DNA of 64,000 bases from an uncultured Gemmatimonadales bacterium (lineage in GTDB: Bacteria; Gemmatimonadota; Gemmatimonadetes; Gemmatimonadales; Gemmatimonadaceae). Below are positions 52,218 to 63,964 of this stretch, piece by piece. Location of the stretch: assembly GCA_963851265.1 (NCBI GenBank), contig CAWKNZ010000007.1, positions 711,091 through 775,090 of the forward strand, given 5' to 3'. The notes under the pieces are model-generated. The model did not search any database, was not told the DNA's origin, and saw only the letters and a program-made list of their open reading frames with translations. The position numbers and the translations under genes are program-made. Position 1 is the first letter of the stretch; every line of letters begins with the position of its first letter.

Positions 52218-53411
52218 ATGCCTACCTTCGCCTACACCGCCCGCACGATGGGCGGCGACCTCCGTTCGGCCACGATCGACGCCCCGTCGCGCGAGGACGC
52301 GGTGTTGCAGCTGCGCAAGCTGCGGCTCGCCGTCGTCAAGGTCGACGAGATGGTGCGCAAGCCCAGGGCGCCGGGCAAGGTGCCGATGAAGGACGTGGTG
52401 ATCTTCACGCGGCAGTTCTCGACGATGATCAACGCGGGGCTGCCGCTGGTGCAGGCGCTCGACATCCTCTCGAAGCAGAGCGACAACAAGGCGCTGCAGC
52501 AGGTGACGCGCGCGGTGGTGTTCGACGTCGAGAGCGGGGCGACGGTGAGCGACGCGTTGGGCAAGCATCCGAAGGTGTTCACGGACCTCTACGTGAACAT
52601 GGTCGCCGCGGGCGAGGCGGGCGGTATCCTCGACACGATCCTGATGCGCCTGGCGACGTTCCTGGAGAAGGCGGACGCACTGATGCGGAAGGTGAAGGGC
52701 GCGATGATCTACCCGGCGGTGATCTCGGGCGTCGCGGTGATCTGCGTGACGGTGCTGCTGTGGAAGGTGATCCCGGTATTCGAGGGGATGTTCGCGAGCG
52801 TCAACCTCGAGCTGCCGCTGCCGACGCGCGTGGTGGTGGGTCTGTCGCGGTTCGTGAACGGGTACTGGTGGGCGCTGCTCGCGGGCGGGGCCGGGGCGGG
52901 ATTCCTGGTGCGGCAGTACTACGCGACGGCCAACGGCAAGCTGGTGATCGACCGCCTGCTGCTGAAGGTGCCCGTGCTGGGCGACGTGCTGCGGAAGGCG
53001 GCGGTCTCGCGGTTCACGCGGACGTTGGGCACGCTGATCGCGTCGGGCGTGAGCATCCTCGACGGGCTGGAGATCACGGCGCGGACGGCGGGGAACCGGG
53101 TGGTGCAGGACGCGATCCTGGCGTCGCGGACGAGCATCGCGGGCGGCGACACGATCGCCGCGCCGCTGGCGAAGAGTCAAGTGTTCCCGCCGATGGTGAT
53201 CTCGATGATCGCGGTGGGGGAGCAGACGGGCGGGCTGGACGAGATGCTGACGAAGATCGCGGACTTCTACGACAACGAGGTGGACGCGGCGGTGAGCGCG
53301 CTGCTGTCGCTGTTGGAGCCGCTGATGATCGTGGTGTTAGGCGTGGTAGTGGGGGGGATGGTGGTGGCGATGTATCTGCCGATTTTCGATATGATCAACG
53401 CGGTGCAGTGA
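52218..53411 (+). CDS. pilC: Type IV pilus inner-membrane platform protein PilC (T2SS F family)
   Basis: FTRQF, AGEAGG, YPA, GEQTG, LEP and MYLPIF motifs. Confidence 0.93.
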   Translation: MPTFAYTARTMGGDLRSATIDAPSREDAVLQLRKLRLAVVKVDEMVRKPRAPGKVPMKDVVIFTRQFSTMINAGLPLVQALDILSKQSDNKALQQVTRAVVFDVESGATVSDALGKHPKVFTDLYVNMVAAGEAGGILDTILMRLATFLEKADALMRKVKGAMIYPAVISGVAVICVTVLLWKVIPVFEGMFASVNLELPLPTRVVVGLSRFVNGYWWALLAGGAGAGFLVRQYYATANGKLVIDRLLLKVPVLGDVLRKAAVSRFTRTLGTLIASGVSILDGLEITARTAGNRVVQDAILASRTSIAGGDTIAAPLAKSQVFPPMVISMIAVGEQTGGLDEMLTKIADFYDNEVDAAVSALLSLLEPLMIVVLGVVVGGMVVAMYLPIFDMINAVQ

Positions 53412-53572
53412 GGAAGGTTGCCTCGCGTTGATCGACAGTTTGTCAAACCATTGACGCACACCTTGCCGAACGGTTGAGCGGCGATTTTCCGCTACGCGCG
53501 GCGGCTTGCCGCGAACGGTCACCGCGCACCGCACGTACCGCTGCTCGAATGCTCCGATCGAACCCGCGGCAG

Positions 53573-56500
53573 TCAGAGCGAAAAGCTTGCCCCGCCGTAG
53601 CTCTCGTAGATGTGCTCGAACACCGCCGAGCACTTCCGCTGATACAGCTCGGGCGTGTACGCGCGCGGTAACCCGACGTCTAGCGTGTCCTCTATTGCGA
53701 GGCGCACGCGCGCCCGCGCCTGGATCTGCCGTCGCCAGTCAAGCGCGAGCAGGTCGTTCAGCCGATCGAGCAGCTGGCGCGCGACCTTCTTCACCTCCTC
53801 GCGCTCGGCCGGCGCGAGCTCCGGGCCCGGGCGCGTCAGGATGTCGAACACCGTTAGCTCGGATTCTGTGAGATGCTCGCGGAGGTGGCGTTCCTCCTCC
53901 TGCGAGAGTGAGCCCGCGAACGACACGAGCTCGTCGAGGATCTGCTCGATGCTCCGGCTGCCGCTGTTGTAGCTCTCGATGAGCTGCTCGAACTTTTCCA
54001 GGTAGTCGGCGCGACTCCGGTTGATCTGAATCATCCGGTCAAGCTGCGCCCGGATCGCCGCCTTGAGCGCCTCGAGGTCGGACCGCTTGTGCTTCGACTC
54101 GGCATACCGCTCCCGAAGCGCCTCGAAGTCGATCTTCGAGAGGTCGACGAGCTTCGCGGGCCCAGACGGGATCGACACGCCGGCGATCGACGCGTCAAGT
54201 ACCTGCGCCACGCCTGTGAGCACCGCGGAGATGCTCGCCGGGTCAGGGCTCAGCTTCGCGCGGATCGCGTCGGCGACGGCGGTGAGGCACGCAGCGCGCG
54301 GCGTGAACTCGACGACCGACGGGTCGGGCTTCACGGCATCGTACAGCGCGCCGACCAGACGCGCGTGCGCGAGGAACACTTTCCGCTCAGGATCGGGCGC
54401 AATGAGCGCATCCACCGCGTCGGCGAGGCACTGAAGGCGCGCCATCGAGCCGCTCGGCTGCGACTCGACGTCGGGGAGCGAGACGCCGCGCGCGGCGCAG
54501 TACGCTGTCGCGTCGGCTACCGCCGTGTGCAGTTCTTCGACCAGCTGGTGCTTGTCGCGAACGGGCGTCGCCCCACTGCCACCCTTGCCGTAGATGGCGA
54601 GCGCCTTTTCCAGCGACACGAACACGTTCGCGTAGTCGACGATCAGGCCGCTGTGCTTTCCGCGGATACACCCGGTTCGCTCGCGCGATGGTCTGCATCA
54701 GCGTGTGATTCCGCATCGGCTTGTCGAGATACACCGTCGAGCAGCTCGGCGCGTCGAAGCCGGTCAGCCACATCGCGCAGACGAACACCAGGCGCAGCGG
54801 GTCGTCCGGGTCTTTGAATCGCTCGTCGAGATCCTCGATCGTTCATCCGCTTGCGGTGCGGCACGATGTCGAGCCCGAGTGCGCGCATCTGCTCGATCTC
54901 GTTCTGCCCCGGCGAGACGATGAGCGCCATGTCGGTCGTGTCGAGCACGATCGAGTCGGCGTCGCAGGTCGACGCGCTCGTCATCGGTGATGCGGACGCC
55001 CGCCAGTCGCCGCCAGCACGCGCGTGCGCTCGCGGTCCCAGTGCGTCGCGCACCTTGTCGTGCATCCGGAGCGCGGTCGCCTTGTCGATCGAGACCACCA
55101 TCGCCTTGCCGACGAAGCCGCGGCCGAGGAAGTGCCGGACGATGTCGCGCGCGATGGTGTCCAGCCGGTCGTCGCGGGTGAGCAGGTGGTACTGGCGCCC
55201 GAGCTCGCGCTCGAGCCGGGCCTCCTGCGTCCTCGTCCAGCCCCGCGCGCTTCGATGAGGTCGTAGATGTCCTCGTTGAGGTGCGGGTTCACCAGCTGCA
55301 GCTCGGGCGTGCGGTTCTCGTAAAAGAGCGGGACCGTCGCGCCGTCCTCGACCGACTGCTGGAAGTCGTAGATCGAGACGTAATCGCCGAACACGTCCTG
55401 CGTCCGCTCCTCGCCGGCGATCAGCGGGGTGCCGGTGAAGGCGAGAAAGAGCGCGTTCGGCAGCGCGGCGCGCATGTTCAGCGCGAGCGTGTCGTACTGG
55501 CTGCGGTGCGCCTCGTCGGTGAGCACGATCACGTCGCGCCGGTCGCTCAGAGCAACTCCGGCGTCTGGAACTTGTGGACGAGGGTGAAGACGTAGCGATG
55601 GTTGCCGCGCAGCAGCTCCCGCAGCTGCGCGCCGCTCGTCGCGTGGCATCGACCTTCGGCGTCAGCTCACGGCGCCGCACGCGGCTTGAAGGTCTTGGCG
55701 ATCTGGTCATCCAGCTCCACGCGGTCGGTGACGACGACGAACGTCCAGTTGCCGGCGACCTTGCGCAGCACCTTCTGCGCGAAGAAGACCATCGAGAAGC
55801 TCTTGCCGCTGCCCTGCGTCTGCCAGAAGACGCCGGCGCGGCCGTGGCCGCGCGCGCGGGCGTCGAGCATCGCGGCGATGGCGTTGTTGACGCCGAGGAA
55901 CTGGTGGTTCTGGCCGAGGATCTTGACGAGCGCCGGCCTTGTGCTCGGAGAAGAGCGTGAAGTTCTCGATCAGGTCGAGCAGGCGGGCAGGCTCGCACGT
56001 ACCGCGCAGGATCGACTTCCAGCGACACGCGGCGCGGCTCGTCCTCGCGCTCGATGCGCTTCCACTCGAAGAAACGCTCCCAGTCCGCGGTGAGGGTGCC
56101 GACGCGGCTGTCGGTGCCGTTGGACGCAATGAGAAGGGCGTTGTACCGGAAGAGCCCGGGCGCGCATTCAGCGGGTGCTTGTAGCTGCGTCAGGTTCGTC
56201 GTCGAACGCCTGGCGCGCGGGGACGCCCGGCTTCTTGAGTTCGACGACGACCAGCGGCAAGCCGTTGACGAATCCGACGAGGTCGGGGCGGCAGGTGTAG
56301 AGCGCGCCCGGTGACGGTCAGCTGGCAGACGAGCAGGAAGTCGTTCGCCGCAGGGGTGTCCCAGTCGATCACGCGCACGCGCTCGTCGCGCTCACCGCCG
56401 TGCTCGCGGTCGGGGACCTGCACGGGAACGCCGTCGCGGAGCAGAGCCCAGATCTCGCGATTGGCAGCGACGGGGGTCATCGCGCCGCGGTCGCGGGTCA

Positions 56501-56729
56501 GCTCGGCGACTGCTGCGTCGAGCGCGTCGGCGAGTAGGGCTGGGTTGAGACGCGCGAGGGCGACGCGCACGCGGCCGTCCAGGATGACGTCGCCGGTGGT
56601 CTCGCGGCCGAGCGTCCCGGTGGGGCCTAACGTCTCGTCCATCGCCGACACGGTGGACCAGCCCAGCTCCGCGAAGAGCTGAATCGCGGGCTGCTCGACG
56701 AGCTGGTCCTCGGTGTAGGCGTGGGGCAC
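53573..56729 (-). pseudogene. hsdR: Type I restriction endonuclease subunit R with many frameshifts (pseudogene or assembly indels)
   Basis: Fragments in shifting frames: [78 protein letters not shown], plus an intact C-terminal domain. Confidence 0.9.
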
Positions 56730-56740
56730 GGGTCAGCCCC

Positions 56741-59005
56741 TCACTTGAAATGCTGCTGGATGTACTCGTGCATGTGACTCGGCGGTAGCGCCGGGGAGGA
56801 TGCTCCCGCGCGGATGTAGAACTCCTCCGTCGAACCGTTCTTCAGAAAGACAGGCCGGTCGCTACGGTCGACCTCGATCACGAGGACACGCTGTCCGGCG
56901 ACGTCGGCGAAGCTGGGCCTCAGGCACGAGTGCACGCTGTTGCCGAGGTGGCTCTTCACCAAGTTGTCCAGGTGAAGCGCCATCTTGTCATCGTTCTCGA
57001 ACCCGTCATTGCCCAGTCCGATCGGATTGCCTGCGTCGTCCACGCCGACGAACAGCGTACCGCCCTTCGAGTTCAGGAACGCGGCGAGGGTCTTGATCAC
57101 GGCGTGCTCCATCTTCGAATCCTTCTGACCCGTGTGAAGATTCGCGCGGAGGGTCGACTTGAACTCAGTGAGTGGCCCCTCGCCCCGGCTGATCCGCGCC
57201 TCGAAGGTGTCCATGTCTGCCGGGACGGTCTCACCATCGGTGAGGCGCCGGTAGCCGTCGGCAATGACCTTGGCGATCCCGCGTCGCCGAGACTCCAAGA
57301 ACTTCGTGTACTCCATCTGCTCCCAACCGGTCGGCAGCGCGTGCCAGTACGCCTGGTCCGCCCGCTCCTTTGCCGTGAGTCGGCTCCAATACTTCGGGAG
57401 GTACTCCGACGGCGGAGTGTCCGAGATCGCGATGTTGTCGTTCCACTCGACCAACGCGTAGTTGGCGATCTGGTTGGTTTGGGGCGCCAACGTGAACCCG
57501 AGGCTAGACAGATAGCTCTTCGGGAAGAGGTGGTGCCGTTCCGCTCCTGATTTCGGCGACTTGATCGAGGGGTCGAGAACGTCGCGAGTGCGCTTCTTCG
57601 AGAAGAGGACACGCGCGTCGAGCACGTTCAACGACGCGAGGTAAGCGTAGAGCAGCGGGCTTGTCGCGGACGACGTGTCGAGGCGATTCGGTAGTGTGAC
57701 CGCCCAGAAGTCTTCGGTCAGATCCGCCGCCATCGCACGCTCGGCCCACGCGAGGAAATCACCGGCCACCGTCGCGCTCCGCAGTGCGGCGAGATCACGC
57801 TCCATCAAGGTCTCCGGCGAGCCACCGGTGTACCGCGACGTGACCGATGCCATGAAGAACCAGCGACCGATGACCTGCCCGAGCGTGTTCGGGTTGACCT
57901 TGAGGTCGATGCGCCCGATCAAGAACAGGATGTACGTGTAGAAGAGCGTCGTCTTGGAGCTGACGAGATTCGCCCCAGTGAAACCGGATTGCTTCAGAAT
58001 GCCGAGGTAGTCATGCCAGTGCGTCAGGTTGAGCGCGTGCGTCTGCGCTTGCTGAAGCCGGGCGAACTGCAGCTCGCGCTGCGCCTGGCTGAAGACCTCC
58101 GTGTCCATGTCCTTGCCGCGGAGGACTGAGTACGCGGATTTGAGCCGGGCGCGGCGGAACCCCATGCCAACTGCCACGCGGAGGAGCTGGTCAGGCGATG
58201 GCTCGACGAAGTGGTTGTACGCGCTCGGTCCCGATTTGCTCGGCTGGCGCGCGGCACGACAGAAGCTCTCGAGCTCCTTTCGTCCGTCCTCCCAGAACAC
58301 CGACATCAGTGTGAGGATGAAGTCAGCCTGGTTCAGCTTCTTCCCCTCGCTGTTGATCCGGACGAAAACCTCGGCGACCTGCTCTTCGTCAATACTTGCA
58401 GCGAGTTGGAGGACGGTGAACGGGTAGCTGGTCAGCGAGAAGAGCCGCTGGAGCGCATTCTCGCACGCCTTCCGCTGCTCCATGGTCAGCTCGACTCCGT
58501 TCCGCTTCCGGTGCGACGCCAGCCGATCGAGATACTCGCCGACGATCCGGTACTGGCTCGCGTTTGGGGCGAACAGCTCGGAAACGTTCGGCAGGTACTC
58601 TGGGTCCTTGCGGATCGCCGCATCGCAGACCTGGAAGGTCCCGTCGGTCGGCCGGAATGCGATTTCGATCCGCTCGGTTTGGTAGTCCTCGCGCACGACG
58701 GGGATGCCCTTCAGCACCGCGTAGAGCGACGTTAGGCGCTGCTGTCCATCGACAATCAACAGCTGCGGGACCTTCTGGTGGCTGTTGGTGCCAATCTGCT
58801 TCGTCTTCTCACCAACCTGGTTTTCCCAGAAGAGGAAGTACCCGACCGGGTAGCCACGATACATCGAGTCGAACAGGTCACGCACCTTCGCATTCTTCCA
58901 CACGAATGGGCGCTGAATGTCGGGCAGCCCGATCTCGCCCATCTGGACGTCGTCGATCAGCGTCGCGAGCGAGTAGCCGACTTCCTTGAAGAGCGTCGTA
59001 GTCAT
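56741..59005 (-). CDS. GmrSD-like DUF262 + HNH protein fused to a C-terminal Schlafen/AlbA_2 domain
   Basis: IQRPFVW, DGQQRLT and FVRIN (DUF262); ERHHLFP...N...N (HNH); GEGPLTEFK...AAFLNSKGGTLFVGVDD (AlbA_2). Confidence 0.85.
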   Translation of the reverse strand: MTTTLFKEVGYSLATLIDDVQMGEIGLPDIQRPFVWKNAKVRDLFDSMYRGYPVGYFLFWENQVGEKTKQIGTNSHQKVPQLLIVDGQQRLTSLYAVLKGIPVVREDYQTERIEIAFRPTDGTFQVCDAAIRKDPEYLPNVSELFAPNASQYRIVGEYLDRLASHRKRNGVELTMEQRKACENALQRLFSLTSYPFTVLQLAASIDEEQVAEVFVRINSEGKKLNQADFILTLMSVFWEDGRKELESFCRAARQPSKSGPSAYNHFVEPSPDQLLRVAVGMGFRRARLKSAYSVLRGKDMDTEVFSQAQRELQFARLQQAQTHALNLTHWHDYLGILKQSGFTGANLVSSKTTLFYTYILFLIGRIDLKVNPNTLGQVIGRWFFMASVTSRYTGGSPETLMERDLAALRSATVAGDFLAWAERAMAADLTEDFWAVTLPNRLDTSSATSPLLYAYLASLNVLDARVLFSKKRTRDVLDPSIKSPKSGAERHHLFPKSYLSSLGFTLAPQTNQIANYALVEWNDNIAISDTPPSEYLPKYWSRLTAKERADQAYWHALPTGWEQMEYTKFLESRRRGIAKVIADGYRRLTDGETVPADMDTFEARISRGEGPLTEFKSTLRANLHTGQKDSKMEHAVIKTLAAFLNSKGGTLFVGVDDAGNPIGLGNDGFENDDKMALHLDNLVKSHLGNSVHSCLRPSFADVAGQRVLVIEVDRSDRPVFLKNGSTEEFYIRAGASSPALPPSHMHEYIQQHFK

Positions 59006-59031
59006 GTGGATGGTTGGCCGCGGCAGGAACG

Positions 59032-60252
59032 TCAGGACAAGCTGGCTTCCGCCGCGGCGAGGTCGAGCTGGCCGGAGAGGAGGCGGGGGAGGAGGACGTC
59101 GCGGGTCGCACGAAGGTTGTCGACCTGCGAATGAAGTCGCTGGATCTGCGCGAACATTGGTGTGACGAGCTTCGAGAAGTGATCGAGGAGCATCCGCGGC
59201 GGCTGCGCGATCGGGAAGTCGTTAAGGCAACGCTCCTGCACGCGCTGTCGCCCACTTGCACCCGACATGCTCTTGATCGCAGTCGACCGAAATCGCTCGC
59301 TACGGGCGAGCAGGTAAACGAAGTGCGGCGTCAGACTCTTGGAGCGCAGCACGATGAACTCGGTTGATCCGAAGGCGACAGCACGCTCGCCGGGTAGAAA
59401 CTGGACGAAGCCGGTCTTCCCGTTCTCTAGACAGGGTGTGATCCGCGCGACGAGCGTGTCACCATTCTGAAACTTCGATCCGCTGTTACCGCCACGCGCT
59501 TCGATGTTGGTGATCAACATCGAATCATTCGCGAGACACTGCATCGGAACGAATGGCTTTTCGCCGTCCTTGGGAACCGAAACCCGAGGGTTCACGAGCA
59601 CGCATTCGGGGAGCGGCGTCAGCTGCCAACCACGGGGAACGTCGCCGAGTGATGTGGTGATCCGAGGTTGCTCTGCGTGCCCCGGAAACCGGAACTCGAC
59701 GAACCACTCGCGGTAGAGCGCGCGCGCCATCGTCTCCAGGATCTGGATGCGGCGCTGGCAGTTCTCTATCAGCTGGTCGTATGCCGCGAGAACGCCAGCA
59801 ATTCGGAGCTGAACGTCGAGTGGCGGAAGTGGAAGCTGAATCCTCCGCAGATTCGCTTGGGAGAGCTTAGGCTGAGCTGCTCCTGTCACAAACGCCTTGA
59901 TGTCGGCCGCGTTCAGGCACGCCAGGAGGAACGTATCGTCGATGATGCCCGGCTTTCCCCTGAGCACGTGGGCGTGATTGTTCACCCAAAAGCGCCCGTC
60001 TGCGAATAGCGCGAGCGGCAGCTTTTTGCTGTTCAGATTCTCGCCATCCTCCGCGGCAAGTATAAAGCGCCCCTCAAAGATGAAATCATCGACGTAATCG
60101 ATGATGCCCTGCGCACCGTAGTACGGGTACGCGCCTTTGCGTTGCTGCCGTTCGGAGCTGCTTAGCGGGATTCGCCGCGAGTCGAACAGATCAGCAACTT
60201 CGCCGAGCAGGGCGGTCCGCCAATCTGAACGCGGCGTGCTACTCGCTGTCAT
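59032..60252 (-). CDS. hsdS: Type I R-M specificity subunit S
   Basis: Two TRDs with conserved spacers ([31 protein letters not shown]); start overlaps the hsdM stop. Confidence 0.9.
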
Positions 60253-61879
60253 GCTTCGAGGAGCGCGGACACGTTGGCGGCAATGGTCAATTCGAGCCCA
60301 CGCGCCTCAGTGTTGAGTACTTCGAGTTCCTCGTGCAACCTGCCAAGCCGGGATTTGAAGTCCTCGTCGCTCACCTCTTCGCCAGGGGCAACGCCGACGT
60401 AGCGCCCCGGATTCAGCGACCATCCCTGCGCCTCGATCTCCGCAACCGTCGCCGCGCGGCACAGGCCCGGCACGTCGGCGTACTTCGGCTTCTTCCCGAA
60501 CACCTCCGCGATCTTCGCCCGCGCCTCGTCGCCGCCTAACGCGAAGTCCAGCGCCTCGCCGCGCCACAGCCTGACAAGGTTGCCGAGGAAGTCGATCTGC
60601 GCCGCCGTCCAGTCGCGGTGCGCGCGGTCGATCTGCCGGTAGATGTGCCGCGCGTCGACGAACAGCACCTCGTCCCGGCGCGCCGAATGTGCCTTGCCGC
60701 GGTCGAGGAACCAGAGCGTGCAGGGCAGCGTGACCGTGTAGAACATGTTGGGCCCGACGGCGACCATCACGTCCACCGCGCGCGCCTCGATCGAGCTGGC
60801 GGCGGATTTCCTGCTCCGAGGCGCGGGCGTCGGACGCGGAGTTCGCCATCACGAACCCCGCGCGCCCCTTGGCGTTCAGCGCCGAGTAGAAGAGCTGGAT
60901 CCAGAGGTAGTTCGCGTTGTCGGTGCGCGGCAGGCCGAAGGGAAAGCGGCGGCCCGGGCCGACGGCGTCCTTCAGTCGCTCCTTGTCGACCGCGTTCACG
61001 TTGAACGGCGGATTGGCGAGCACGAAGTCGAAGTGTCCCGTCGCCTCGTGCGGGTCGTCGTAGTAGCTGTTGATCTGGCCGCCGTGGCGGATGTCGCCGT
61101 CCAGCCCGTGCACGGCGAGGTTCATGCGGCAGAGGCGGCCCGTCTCGTCGGTCTTCTCGACGCCGTGGATGCGAGAGCTCGTCGTCGGGGTTCTTCGATG
61201 CGCCTGCGACGAACGCGCGCCGACTGCACGAACATGCCGCCCGAGCCGCACGCGGGGTCGAGGATGCGGCCGTGGTAGGGCTCGAGGATCTCGACGATGC
61301 AGCTTGCACGATGCTGGCCGGCGTGTAGAACTCGCCGCCCTTCTGGCCCTCGGTGCGCGCGAACTCGCCGAGGAAGTACTCGTAGATGCGACCGAAGGCG
61401 TCGTACTCGACGTTGGACGGGATCTCGGAGACCTTCTTCAGCAGCTCCTTGAGCAGCGTGCTGCTGAAGAGCTGGTACGGTCTTGCGGCAGCACGCCGGC
61501 GAGCTGCGGGTTGTGCTCGCTCGATCTCGGCGCATGGCCTCGTTGAGGGCCTTGCCGACGTTCGTCGCGCCTCGGGAAGTTGGAGCAGGGAGCCGAAGCG
61601 GGCTGTCTCGGGCAGGTAGAGGACGCTCTCGGCGTGGTAGGCCGTGGGGTCGTCGACGCGCGACGCCGCGGCGGCCGAGGCGCCGGCGGTTTCCAGCTCG
61701 GCGCGCCGCTTCGCAAAGCGGACCTCGGCGAAGCGCAGGAAGATCAGGCCGAGGACCGGGGCGGAGTACTGCTGGGCGGTGAGGCCGCTGTTCGCGCGGA
61801 GCTGGTCGGCGGCGGCCCAGAGGCGCTTTTCGAGCGTACCGGCGTCGGGGTCAGTTCCGGACGGAGCGATCCACTGCAT
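60249..61879 (-). pseudogene. hsdM: Type I R-M methyltransferase subunit M (m6A) with several frameshifts
   Basis: [32 protein letters not shown] and SLNPGRY motifs spread over different frames. Confidence 0.9.
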
Positions 61880-62729
61880 GTGCGGCTGGGGAAACGAGGA
61901 GCAACGAGAGGGGAAGCGACGGGACCGGCAATCTGGTACCGAGTCACGTTCTCCGGAACGTGTCCTCGCCAGTCATCGGGCGCGGCCGAAGTGTGGGGCG
62001 CATAGCCGGCGCCGAGCTGTCGATTGGAGCGTTACCCCCGCGGGCTCCGACCCAGACCAGCGCCGGAGCGGACGCTTGATCGGCTTGGCCAGACTCGGTC
62101 GCGCCGGACACGGCGGTTATTTCGGCTCGAGAGCGCGGATTTCCTCGGCTTCGGCCATCCGGGGCGCGGTGCAATGTGGCCCGACCCGCAGGTTATTTGT
62201 CTGCCGGCGCGCTCCGCTTCGCACGTTGGCGCGGCCCGACGCGAGTACTTCTCCGAAGCCGAGACAGCGGTGCGGACCGTCGACGTGAAGGGCAGCGACC
62301 CAGACATCGTCAATGGACGAACCGGCGATATCCTCGCGCGCGGGCGCGGGCGGCATCCACGGGACCATCACGCTCCGGGCCGGGGTGACGAGAACGTTTG
62401 CCTGGCGCGGGCGCCGCGTGCCGCTGCACTCCGGGCGGCAGGATATCGCGCTGTGTCCGTGGGGGAGGTGGCGCAGCCGCACATCGCAGGCACGCTCGTC
62501 GAAGCGGTCGCCAGTTGGACGGCCCTGCGAACGCGCCGCGTGTCGGGCGTCGTCGCCGACGGACTCCACGCCGGGCACCCCGCCGGCGCCTCACGGTGTT
62601 GGCGTCGACAAGCAGGGCCTGCCGGTTAGGCGTGAGCCGGCCGGGCCGGCAATCAGATCGCCCATTGGATTTGACCCGCGGCAGCGGACACCCGATTAGC
62701 CCCGCTATGGTGCGGGGCGGAGGTGTTCG

Positions 62730-63068: not shown

Positions 63069-63964
63069 GCGACAAGTACGCCGCCATCGCCGCGCACCGC
63101 GGGCAGTACCCGGTGCGGCTCATGTGCGACGCGCTCGGCGTCAGCCCGAGCGGCTTCTACGCGGCCCAGGGGCGCGCGCCGGGCGCGCGGGCCGCGGCCG
63201 ACGAGCGGCTCCGGGTCGAGGTCCGGGCGGCGCACCGGAAGAGCCGCGGGCGCTACGGCGCGCCGCGCGTCCACCGCGCGCTGCGGGCGGCGGGCACTCG
63301 GGTCGGCAAGAAGCGCGTCGCGCGGGTGATGCGCGAGGACGGCCTGGTGGCGCGTCGGGCGCGGCGCCGGATACGGACGACGGACTCGGCGCACGCGCAG
63401 CCGGTGGCGCCGAACCTGGTGGCGCGCGGCTTCGCCGTCGCTACCCAGCCGGGGCTCGACCGCACGTGGGTGAGCGACTTCACGTACATCCCCACGCGCG
63501 AGGGCTGGCTCTTCCTCGCCGTGGTGCTCGACCTGGCGAGCCGCCGCGGGTAAAAACGGTCGGGCTGGGCGGTGCGCGAGACGATGGAGACGGAACTCGT
63601 GCTCGCGGCGCTCCGGATGGCGCTCGCCGCCCGGCACCCCGCGCCCGGGGTCGTGCAACACTCGGATCGTGGGGCGCAATACGCGAGCGGGGCCTACCAG
63701 GCGCTGCTCGCCGCGTACGGCGCGGTGCCGAGCATGAGTCGCAAGGGAGATTGCCACGATAACGCGGTCGCCGAGGCGTTCTTCGCCACGCTCGAACACG
63801 AGCTGCTGGCCGACACCACCTTCCTCTCGCGCGCCGCGGCGCGCGCCGGCATCTTCGAGTTCCTCACGTGGTACAACGCCGAGCGGCTCCACTCGAGCCT
63901 CGGCTACGTCAGTCCCGTGCAGTTCGAGCGGCACCTGCGCGCGCAGCCGGCGCGCGCGGCCTAA
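63065..63964 (+). pseudogene. IS3 transposase OrfB (DDE integrase core) with an in-frame TAA at 63551-63553
   Basis: YGAPRV, WVSDFTYI, HSDRGAQY, NAVAEAFF and YN..RLHSSL motifs; both halves are in the same frame. Confidence 0.85.

Follow-up and report, generated by a model that had tools for sequence, protein, structure and literature searches.

Does a gene that lies between hsdS and hsdR and joins a GmrSD-type restriction enzyme to a Schlafen domain work for the type I restriction-modification (R-M) system around it, or does it encode a defense protein in its own right? The question is raised by a 64,000-nucleotide stretch of contig CAWKNZ010000007.1 (assembly GCA_963851265.1) from an uncultured Gemmatimonadales bacterium. 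This stretch, the window, encodes a DUF262–helical–HNH-like–Schlafen protein, here called the fusion. The gene is real and well conserved, belongs to a catalogued class, and represents a widespread subtype that, as judged from its residues, keeps two predicted active sites, that of a BrxU-type DNase and that of a Schlafen RNase. We favor, with somewhat better than even confidence, the interpretation that the fusion is a stand-alone two-layer defense protein in which a BrxU/HEC-05-type GmrSD chassis carries a C-terminal Schlafen RNase. The open reading frame (ORF) starts with ATG, encodes 754 residues, and has no internal stops. It is separated from the end of hsdS at 59032 and the start of hsdR at 56729 by 26 and 11 bp, so the intact gene and its gaps are as a preliminary description of this DNA had given them. 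The GC content of the gene is 0.62 compared to 0.732 for the genome, and its product gives the sole PF03235 match and the sole PF04326 match of the whole genome.

Profile searches and motif inspection were used to assign the domains. GmrSD_N (PF03235) matches residues 14–231 (E 8.8e-33), and SLFN_AlbA_2 (PF04326) matches residues 611–737 (E 6.6e-18) over profile positions 3–114 of 118; both exceed the curated cut-offs. The motifs are Q31-R32, D86-GQQ-R90, and F214-VRI-N218 in the first domain, E489-R-H491-H492 with N515 and N524 in the HNH-like region, and E609-x4-E614-F-K616 in the tail. The N-terminal signature of GmrSD and BrxU (DUF262 with QR, LFDS, DGQQR, and FxxxN) is present. The best PADLOC model for the protein is HEC-05 (E 4.5e-41), and BrxU (7P9K) matches it in phmmer with an E of 1.3e-13. 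The Atlas leads for the HNH region were HNH_4 (0.90) and GmrSD_C (0.89). NCBIfam assigned no family to the protein, and no PADLOC 2.0 model matched the isolated Schlafen tail at E ≤ 0.01.

An AlphaFold2 model built on a 108-row alignment (66 fused and 42 unfused rows) has a mean predicted local distance difference test (pLDDT) of 88.9 and supersedes an earlier fold on 32 rows in which residues 1–94 had a pLDDT <50. Foldseek ranked BrxU first (E 4.5e-14), followed by SspE and DndI. In VIA-align comparisons, BrxU covers residues 6–591 (Z 13.9, 489 aligned, root-mean-square deviation (rmsd) 19.2), and the C-terminal part of SspE covers residues 229–591 (Z 7.9, rmsd 5.4, 304 aligned). The tail, residues 598–754, aligns with the SAMD9 tRNase domain 9O0D (Z 12.6, rmsd 3.4, 148 aligned), and SLFN domains match it too. 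The HNH region has weak matches to Cas9 HNH domains (Z 4.4–4.7; for 7MPZ, residues 450–565, Z 4.7, rmsd 3.7, 100 aligned); a Z of 4.7 is within the range of common arrangements, so these matches count only together with the motif. A homodimer prediction for the Schlafen tail scored 0.00 and is uninformative either way. These data confirm the DUF262 domain with its QR, DGQQR, and FxRIN motifs and the C-terminal Schlafen/AlbA_2 domain with ExxxxEFK, both of which the preliminary description had proposed.

Conservation was scored in the 108 rows. S47, D86, R90, and N218 are invariant (108/108), and S47 corresponds to BrxU S42 in the phmmer alignment. The full set of H491, H492, N515, and N524 is present in 62 of the 66 fused rows and 40 of the 42 unfused rows, and E609, E614, K616, and D657 are kept in every fused row (66/66). 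The ratio of nonsynonymous to synonymous substitution (dN/dS) of the four parts of the protein, measured against a 90% identical copy in genome G031, was 0.07, 0.08, 0.035, and 0.11. Six further pairs gave 0.04–0.22 wherever dS was unsaturated. These data show that the catalytic residues of all three enzymatic domains are conserved and that the gene is under purifying selection. In four relatives (P0184, P0201, P0211, and P0216) conserved glycines read as tryptophan, which is expected if TGA encodes glycine there and the proteins were translated with a different code.

Fusions of DUF262 to Schlafen are class pSlfn7 of Perez Taboada et al. (2026), which accounts for 109 of 5930 proteins (PMC13056530). 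The features of the class are all present in the fusion: full-length PF04326, the Ex4(E/D)xK motif, and a PF03235 partner. One member, EcoSlfn7 (WP_028985442.1), lowers the plating of several phages, that of T7 by 538-fold; the paper does not address its mechanism (PMC13056530). A likely defense role, as previously suggested, is supported; EcoSlfn7 shows that a DUF262-Slfn protein defends. The claim of an uncharacterized architecture is not supported, since a class with a defending member is published and one of its members, WP_014554916.1 (708 aa), aligns with the fusion over residues 13–753 (25% identity, E 3e-55), HNH-like motif included. It is the only long pSlfn7 member that was aligned with the fusion.

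EcoSlfn7 and the fusion share the N-terminal PF03235 domain and the C-terminal PF04326 domain with Ex4(E/D)xK, but they differ in several respects. EcoSlfn7 has 589 residues, falls in the short pSlfn7 group, and aligns with the fusion only over the ParB motifs (24%, E 1e-4). By inspection it has no HNH motif, whereas the fusion has an HNH-like one; the profile comparison is weak on this absence because a classical GmrSD control also aligned only over the N-terminal part. PADLOC classifies the EcoSlfn7 DUF262 domain as NsnA-like and that of the fusion as HEC-05-like. The two Schlafen domains are 27% identical and far apart on the Schlafen-domain tree, where EcoSlfn7 is a long branch, and the EcoSlfn7 gene sits in a P2-like prophage. 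In 97 of the 109 rows of the pSlfn7 table, counted by eye, 31 genes are at least 2100 bp and 66 are ~1750–1870 bp; type I R-M neighbors are listed for 11/31 long genes versus 0/66 short ones (PMC13056530). These data indicate that pSlfn7 as published comprises two or more lineages and that neither of its two tested members belongs to the long, HNH-bearing one. The three-domain form is present in the published table and is not described as such in the text consulted. EcoSlfn7 belongs to the other lineage and lacks the HNH motif, so its defense result does not cover the two-nuclease subtype. We found no report of testing an HNH-bearing DUF262-Schlafen protein in the literature searched, which left out most subscription papers.

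The closest characterized chassis is BrxU, which HEC-05 denotes (bioRxiv 10.1101/2024.01.29.577857). BrxU has the same DUF262–linker–HNH layout, is the best match in both sequence and structure, and shares the LFDS serine and DGQQR; unlike the fusion, it has no Schlafen tail. BrxU requires S42, Q101, R102, D474, and H475, undergoes a dimer–monomer cycle with nucleoside triphosphate (NTP), and cuts DNA containing 5-methylcytosine (5mC), 5-hydroxymethylcytosine (5hmC), or glucosyl-5hmC (PMC8565348). For the tail, RorSlfn5 cleaves tRNA with the E-(D/E)-K triad as its catalytic residues (PMC13056530), and the E-D-K triad of CbCash acts on tRNA under control by assembly (PMC13462974). DUF262, GmrSD, PF03235, and HsdR are all absent from the supplements of the latter paper. 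By analogy with these proteins, the fusion probably cuts chemically modified phage DNA, and its tail probably cuts tRNA. In the mechanism that we propose, the DUF262 domain would bind and hydrolyze NTP and drive a BrxU-like dimer–monomer cycle that licenses the HNH domain, which would then cut modified phage DNA and complement the adjoining type I system. The tail would be a latent metal-dependent tRNase, as RorSlfn5 and CbCash suggest. The tail would be switched on when infection alters the conformation or the assembly state of the chassis, and translation and phage yield would fall as a second layer; DNA cutting and tRNA cleavage would thus be coupled through the chassis. Abortive infection, which the preliminary description had suggested, is not specifically supported, since the one bacterial single-gene Schlafen whose mechanism was studied in the pSlfn7 paper reduces burst size and does not abort infection (PMC13056530).

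Several observations weigh against a BrxU-like two-nuclease protein. GmrSD_C (PF07510, DUF1524) did not match the whole protein at E ≤ 0.01 or the isolated region at E ≤ 0.1, and therefore the HNH assignment is based on motif conservation and structure. The HNH domain of the preliminary description is thus probable from motif and fold similarity and not backed by the Pfam check; the profile has a weak match (E 1.8e-4) to an aligned homologue, L083, rather than to the fusion. BrxU and the fusion are just 18–19% identical in the structural alignment, the DHIYP motif of BrxU is HHLFP in the fusion, and the rmsd of 19.2 means that the relative domain positions differ, so the alignment does not confirm how the domains are arranged. 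The fusion has no identified modification-reader domain. The second tested pSlfn7 protein, EluSlfn7, gave no clear defense (PMC13056530). Four distant fused relatives lack the full set of HNH residues and all of them keep the Schlafen residues, which indicates that some branches can do without DNA cutting. EcoSlfn7, strongest on T7 and without an HNH motif, argues that DUF262 can gate a Schlafen domain without a BrxU-type chassis.

The last two points also bear on the idea that the Schlafen domain is the main effector, the DUF262 chassis is chiefly a sensor or switch, and the HNH domain is secondary. The trigger need not then be modified DNA and could be, for example, a change in the nucleotide pool or a phage protein. 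EcoSlfn7 seems to work this way, the Schlafen residues outlast the HNH residues in fused rows, and one of the HNH-eroded rows, P0208, also has a worn DGQQR motif. However, the HNH residues are as conserved in fused as in unfused proteins, the dN/dS of the HNH part is 0.035–0.22, and the NsnA-like DUF262 domain of EcoSlfn7 and the HEC-05-like one of the fusion align over the ParB motifs only. We consider this explanation unlikely for the fusion.

The distribution of the family was examined by a homologue search in which 8000 candidates were scored and by a GTDB scan that gave at least 581 relatives among 600 stretches. Both Pfam domains are present in 120/120 proteins among the matches listed for the homologue search, 119 of them at 59–81% identity, and the RefSeq protein WP_284352188.1 is 90% identical to the fusion. 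The best 80 GTDB loci were analyzed; they come from many bacterial phyla and methanogenic archaea and comprise 54 fused and 22 unfused genes and 4 that are cut by contig ends. The expected occurrence in other genomes is thereby borne out. Within the host family, 2 of the 201 genomes searched have a full-length match, the source genome and G031. The unfused chassis proteins have 581–598 residues, except that L038, an unfused row, stops early at residue 539. The existence of the chassis alone identifies the Schlafen tail as an add-on. On a FastTree phylogeny of the chassis, calculated with long-branch warnings, at least 10 changes between fused and unfused are needed, of which well-supported branches force 5, compared to a shuffled mean of 33; gain and loss of the tail are not distinguishable on it. 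Chassis and tail distances correlate among fused rows (Spearman 0.83).

When 58 of the 150 distant representatives, along with 3 further homologues, were scanned with Pfam, DUF4268, RAMA, Mrr_N, McrB_N, or Uma2 was found on chassis relatives instead of or besides Schlafen. This variety, together with the single AlbA_2 lobe of the tail, fits the possibility that the tail serves the restriction nuclease by binding nucleic acid or conferring specificity, or that it cuts a target other than tRNA. The tail residues argue otherwise. The Schlafen domain is overall the most variable part of the protein (mean 49% identity to the query), yet E609, E614, K616, and D657 do not vary in fused rows, and they hold the triad that is catalytic in RorSlfn5 and CbCash. 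Two chassis relatives also have C-terminal HEPN-like matches, which are weak and below the cut-off. A binding module or a different target is accordingly quite improbable.

Related tails were sought in 401 genomes of the phylum, of which 39 matched at E ≤ 1e-10. Among 29 tail loci examined, 10 had strong matches to an HsdR body, and 3 were confirmed by Pfam as HsdR-Schlafen proteins; the remaining tail-bearing proteins are DUF262 proteins, a BrxL ATPase, and unassigned proteins. A quick tree of 60 Schlafen domains groups 8 HsdR tails with 24 of the 33 tails of the DUF262-Schlafen family in a single branch (SH-aLRT 99); because the alignment has just 166 columns, the deeper branches are unsure. 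The HsdR proteins with a same-clade tail (L136 2002–5538, L135, L137, and L150–L159) have tails 39–46% identical to that of the fusion. An HsdR class is named in none of the 55 compositions of the pSlfn table (PMC13056530). The BrxL-like ATPase with a C-terminal Schlafen domain is encoded at L175 1–1971. Loci L169, L172, and L174 encode ~280-residue proteins with a Schlafen domain and a possible membrane N-terminal part that has only weak matches to ECF transporters or ferric reductases.

GmrSD-family genes in type I operons are known, and this, with the published DUF262-Schlafen fusions, makes the novelty of the locus lower than first proposed. HEC-05 is among the GmrSD genes found there (bioRxiv 10.1101/2024.01.29.577857), RloF of Campylobacter is a GmrSD-family gene inside a type I R-M operon (PMC4619093), and TgvAB of Vibrio cholerae VPI-2 is a GmrSD pair in the hsdS-hsdR slot that protects against modified-cytosine phages without the type I genes (PMC11411939). 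TgvAB is two proteins, RloF lacks the tail, and neither has an RNase domain, whereas the fusion is one chain with a tail. VNG7073, noted in 2013 as ParB(DUF262)-HNH(DUF2081)-HEPN, resembles the fusion in joining a GmrSD-type chassis to a predicted RNase domain; its tail is HEPN rather than Schlafen, and VNG7073 is itself a prediction (PMC3710099).

The association with type I genes was surveyed with profiles for hsdM, hsdS, and hsdR built from the surveyed loci's own genes. Fourteen hits were removed because they were fragments, unrelated proteins, or genes of type II, III, or IV systems; some of these removals followed a check with PADLOC. Sixteen of the 54 fused loci had too little flank, which left 38 informative fused loci; 17 unfused loci were informative. 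The fused gene is inside an hsd operon at 8/38 loci (directly hsdS-gene-hsdR at 3), beside hsd genes at 9/38, and without any hsd gene at 21/38; the unfused counts are 1/17, 5/17, and 11/17. Proximity to type I genes thus does not distinguish fused from unfused genes (17/38 versus 6/17, Fisher p 0.57, with kin not independent). In the close clade (≥68% identity), counted by hand after duplicate removal, hsd genes occur at 15/23 distinct loci, on both sides at 10, and 8 loci have none, some with short flanks. Other neighbors, from 80 chosen for scanning, include NaeI, DpnII, MmeI-type, and BREX genes, DUF499 systems, and housekeeping genes. Comparisons with two host-family genomes carry the most weight. 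In G031, the island that holds the 90% identical copy, ~16 kb after pilC, also encodes HmaA, HmaB, HmaC, and an AIPR protein and gives no match to hsd genes. In same-genus G195, the same hsdM-hsdS-slot-hsdR operon (87% nucleotide identity) carries different cargo (L144 4803–7614): a classical 537-residue GmrSD (PF03235 and PF07510, HEC-06/Orf5-like) followed by a DUF433-helix-turn-helix and PIN gene pair. That slot again pairs a modification-dependent nuclease with a predicted RNase, although each is encoded separately. The Hma island of G031 and the different cargo of G195 show that the slot is exchangeable and that the fusion gene moves on its own. These data identify the hsdS-hsdR position as a slot that commonly takes cargo, not as a fixed partnership, and the linkage to R-M as facultative. 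The fusion gene is independent of any one neighboring system and has probably moved horizontally.

These results bear on how far the fusion resembles PrrC. PrrC of EcoprrI and the fusion each combine an NTPase with a tRNA nuclease, predicted in the fusion, and are encoded with type I R-M genes, but PrrC is an ABC ATPase joined to HEPN and held inactive by the R-M complex (PMC3710099), whereas the fusion has ParB, HNH, and Schlafen parts and a facultative linkage. Pfam and fold searches cover the whole length of the fusion as ParB, HNH-like, and Schlafen, and not as the ABC ATPase and HEPN domains of PrrC. A PrrC-like guard would bind the type I complex, and its Schlafen domain would fire when a phage anti-restriction protein disables that complex. 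The directly enclosed genes here and at 3 of the 38 informative fused loci, the 8 of those 38 that lie inside an hsd operon, the frequency of hsd genes in the close clade, and the fusion of a related tail to HsdR itself are consistent with such a guard. The hsd-less majority of informative fused loci, the copy in the Hma island, the other cargo of the G195 slot, and the ability of TgvAB to protect without type I genes all oppose it, and we regard it as very improbable. The coupling that the preliminary description had drawn from the slot is not implied by a known, variable cargo position. In the stand-alone interpretation, the position would give co-transcription and not a required physical partner. 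Two arrangements of the slot elsewhere are recorded here. At an archaeal locus (L047 8001–11733), the fusion and a second Schlafen gene (AlbA_2 with HATPase_c_4) lie side by side between hsdS and hsdR, and at two nearly identical metagenome loci (L101 and L102), the fusion follows hsdS and hsdR is split into four pieces.

The features of the locus are listed in Table 1. The preliminary description was right in placing the gene inside a type I operon, but the operon is not intact as assembled. Compared to intact homologues, hsdM is in 4 and hsdR in 9 frameshifted pieces (hsdR against the HsdR of L001), and hsdS and the fusion gene have no frameshifts. Relative to an intact 539-residue hsdM copy in G195 (87% nucleotide identity), hsdM here has 13 coding-region indels, 11 insertions (10 of a single base) and 2 deletions; the aligned ends of hsdR have none. 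The frame-true stretches of hsdM and hsdR are stop-free, and 4 stops were seen only in two alignments that run across frameshifts. Single-base insertions without nonsense codons in frame-true stretches fit long-read error better than decay, and the frameshifts are probably assembly errors from uneven polishing of a long-read consensus. Since almost every break is of this kind, we do not read the intact fusion gene amid broken hsdM and hsdR as a sign of selective retention. No sigma-70 promoter-like sites were found in 53300–62700, terminator-like sites there are at chance level (5 versus 4.7), and there are no tRNA genes within the 64-kb window.

Table 1. Coordinates of the fusion gene, its domains, and the surrounding features in the window
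Feature	Coordinates	Strand	Remarks
DUF262–helical–HNH-like–Schlafen fusion gene (P0001), 754 aa	56741..59005	-	Intact ORF
DUF262/GmrS ParB-Srx fold NTPase domain, aa 14–231	58313..58966	-	PF03235; QR, LFDS, DGQQR, FxRxN
Alpha-helical linker, ~aa 236–470	57596..58300	-	Secondary structure of the model; part of the BrxU (6–591) and SspE C-terminal domain (229–591) structural alignments
GmrD-like HNH (His-Me finger) domain, ~aa 471–590, predicted	57236..57595	-	E489-R-H491-H492, N515, N524; conservation and weak fold match
Schlafen/AlbA_2 tail, ~aa 598–754	56741..57214	-	E609-x4-E614-F-K616, D657; PF04326; SAMD9 fold match
hsdS, type I specificity subunit, intact, 406 aa	59032..60252	-	PF01420 E 5.9e-27; PADLOC Specificity_I E 3.1e-66
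hsdM, frameshifted as assembled	60249..61879	-	PF12161 and PF02384 spread over three ORFs
hsdR, frameshifted as assembled	53573..56729	-	HSDR_N, SWI2_SNF2, T1R_D3-like, and T1RH-like_C in separate ORFs
IS3-family element upstream of hsdM, ends 6 bp before the contig end	62666..63994	+	HTH_Tnp_1 and rve matches

The island with the fusion gene extends from after pilC to the IS3 element at the contig end, which is also the end of the window. The element has a perfect terminal inverted repeat (read by eye), is single copy in the assembly, and has an integrase frame break near 63553–63572; relatives at ~80% identity occur in 9 places of same-genus G125. The site after pilC is a defense hotspot in the host family (L134; L145 in G031; window 53411–62666). 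It holds type I R-M genes in the source genome and, by its hsdR end, in G195, and it holds Hma, AIPR, and the fusion in G031. The same site in G073 and G125 has no match to the island's genes.

The occurrence of same-clade tails on HsdR is relevant to a more tentative idea, which we consider possible but doubtful. The fusion may be a modification-dependent restriction enzyme and its own guard in one chain, so that a jammed or overloaded NTP cycle would lead the Schlafen tails to assemble and cut tRNA. In detail, and with no greater confidence, normal NTP cycling might cut modified phage DNA, and the jam might come from substrate overload or from an inhibitor such as IPI*, which can inhibit BrxU (PMC12409352). 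If this were true, the same-clade HsdR tails and the related BrxL tail would represent a portable back-up module for DNA-handling defense NTPases.

In the published DUF262-Schlafen class, defense is established for one member and a mechanism for none, and its longer lineage keeps what is predicted to be a full BrxU-type nuclease together with an RNase. The natural tail-bearing and tail-less versions, which exist at 53–59% identity, are ready controls. The fusion would be a compact case of restriction of modified DNA and tRNA cleavage wired into one chain, and it bears on whether Schlafen tails may act as built-in back-ups against restriction inhibitors.

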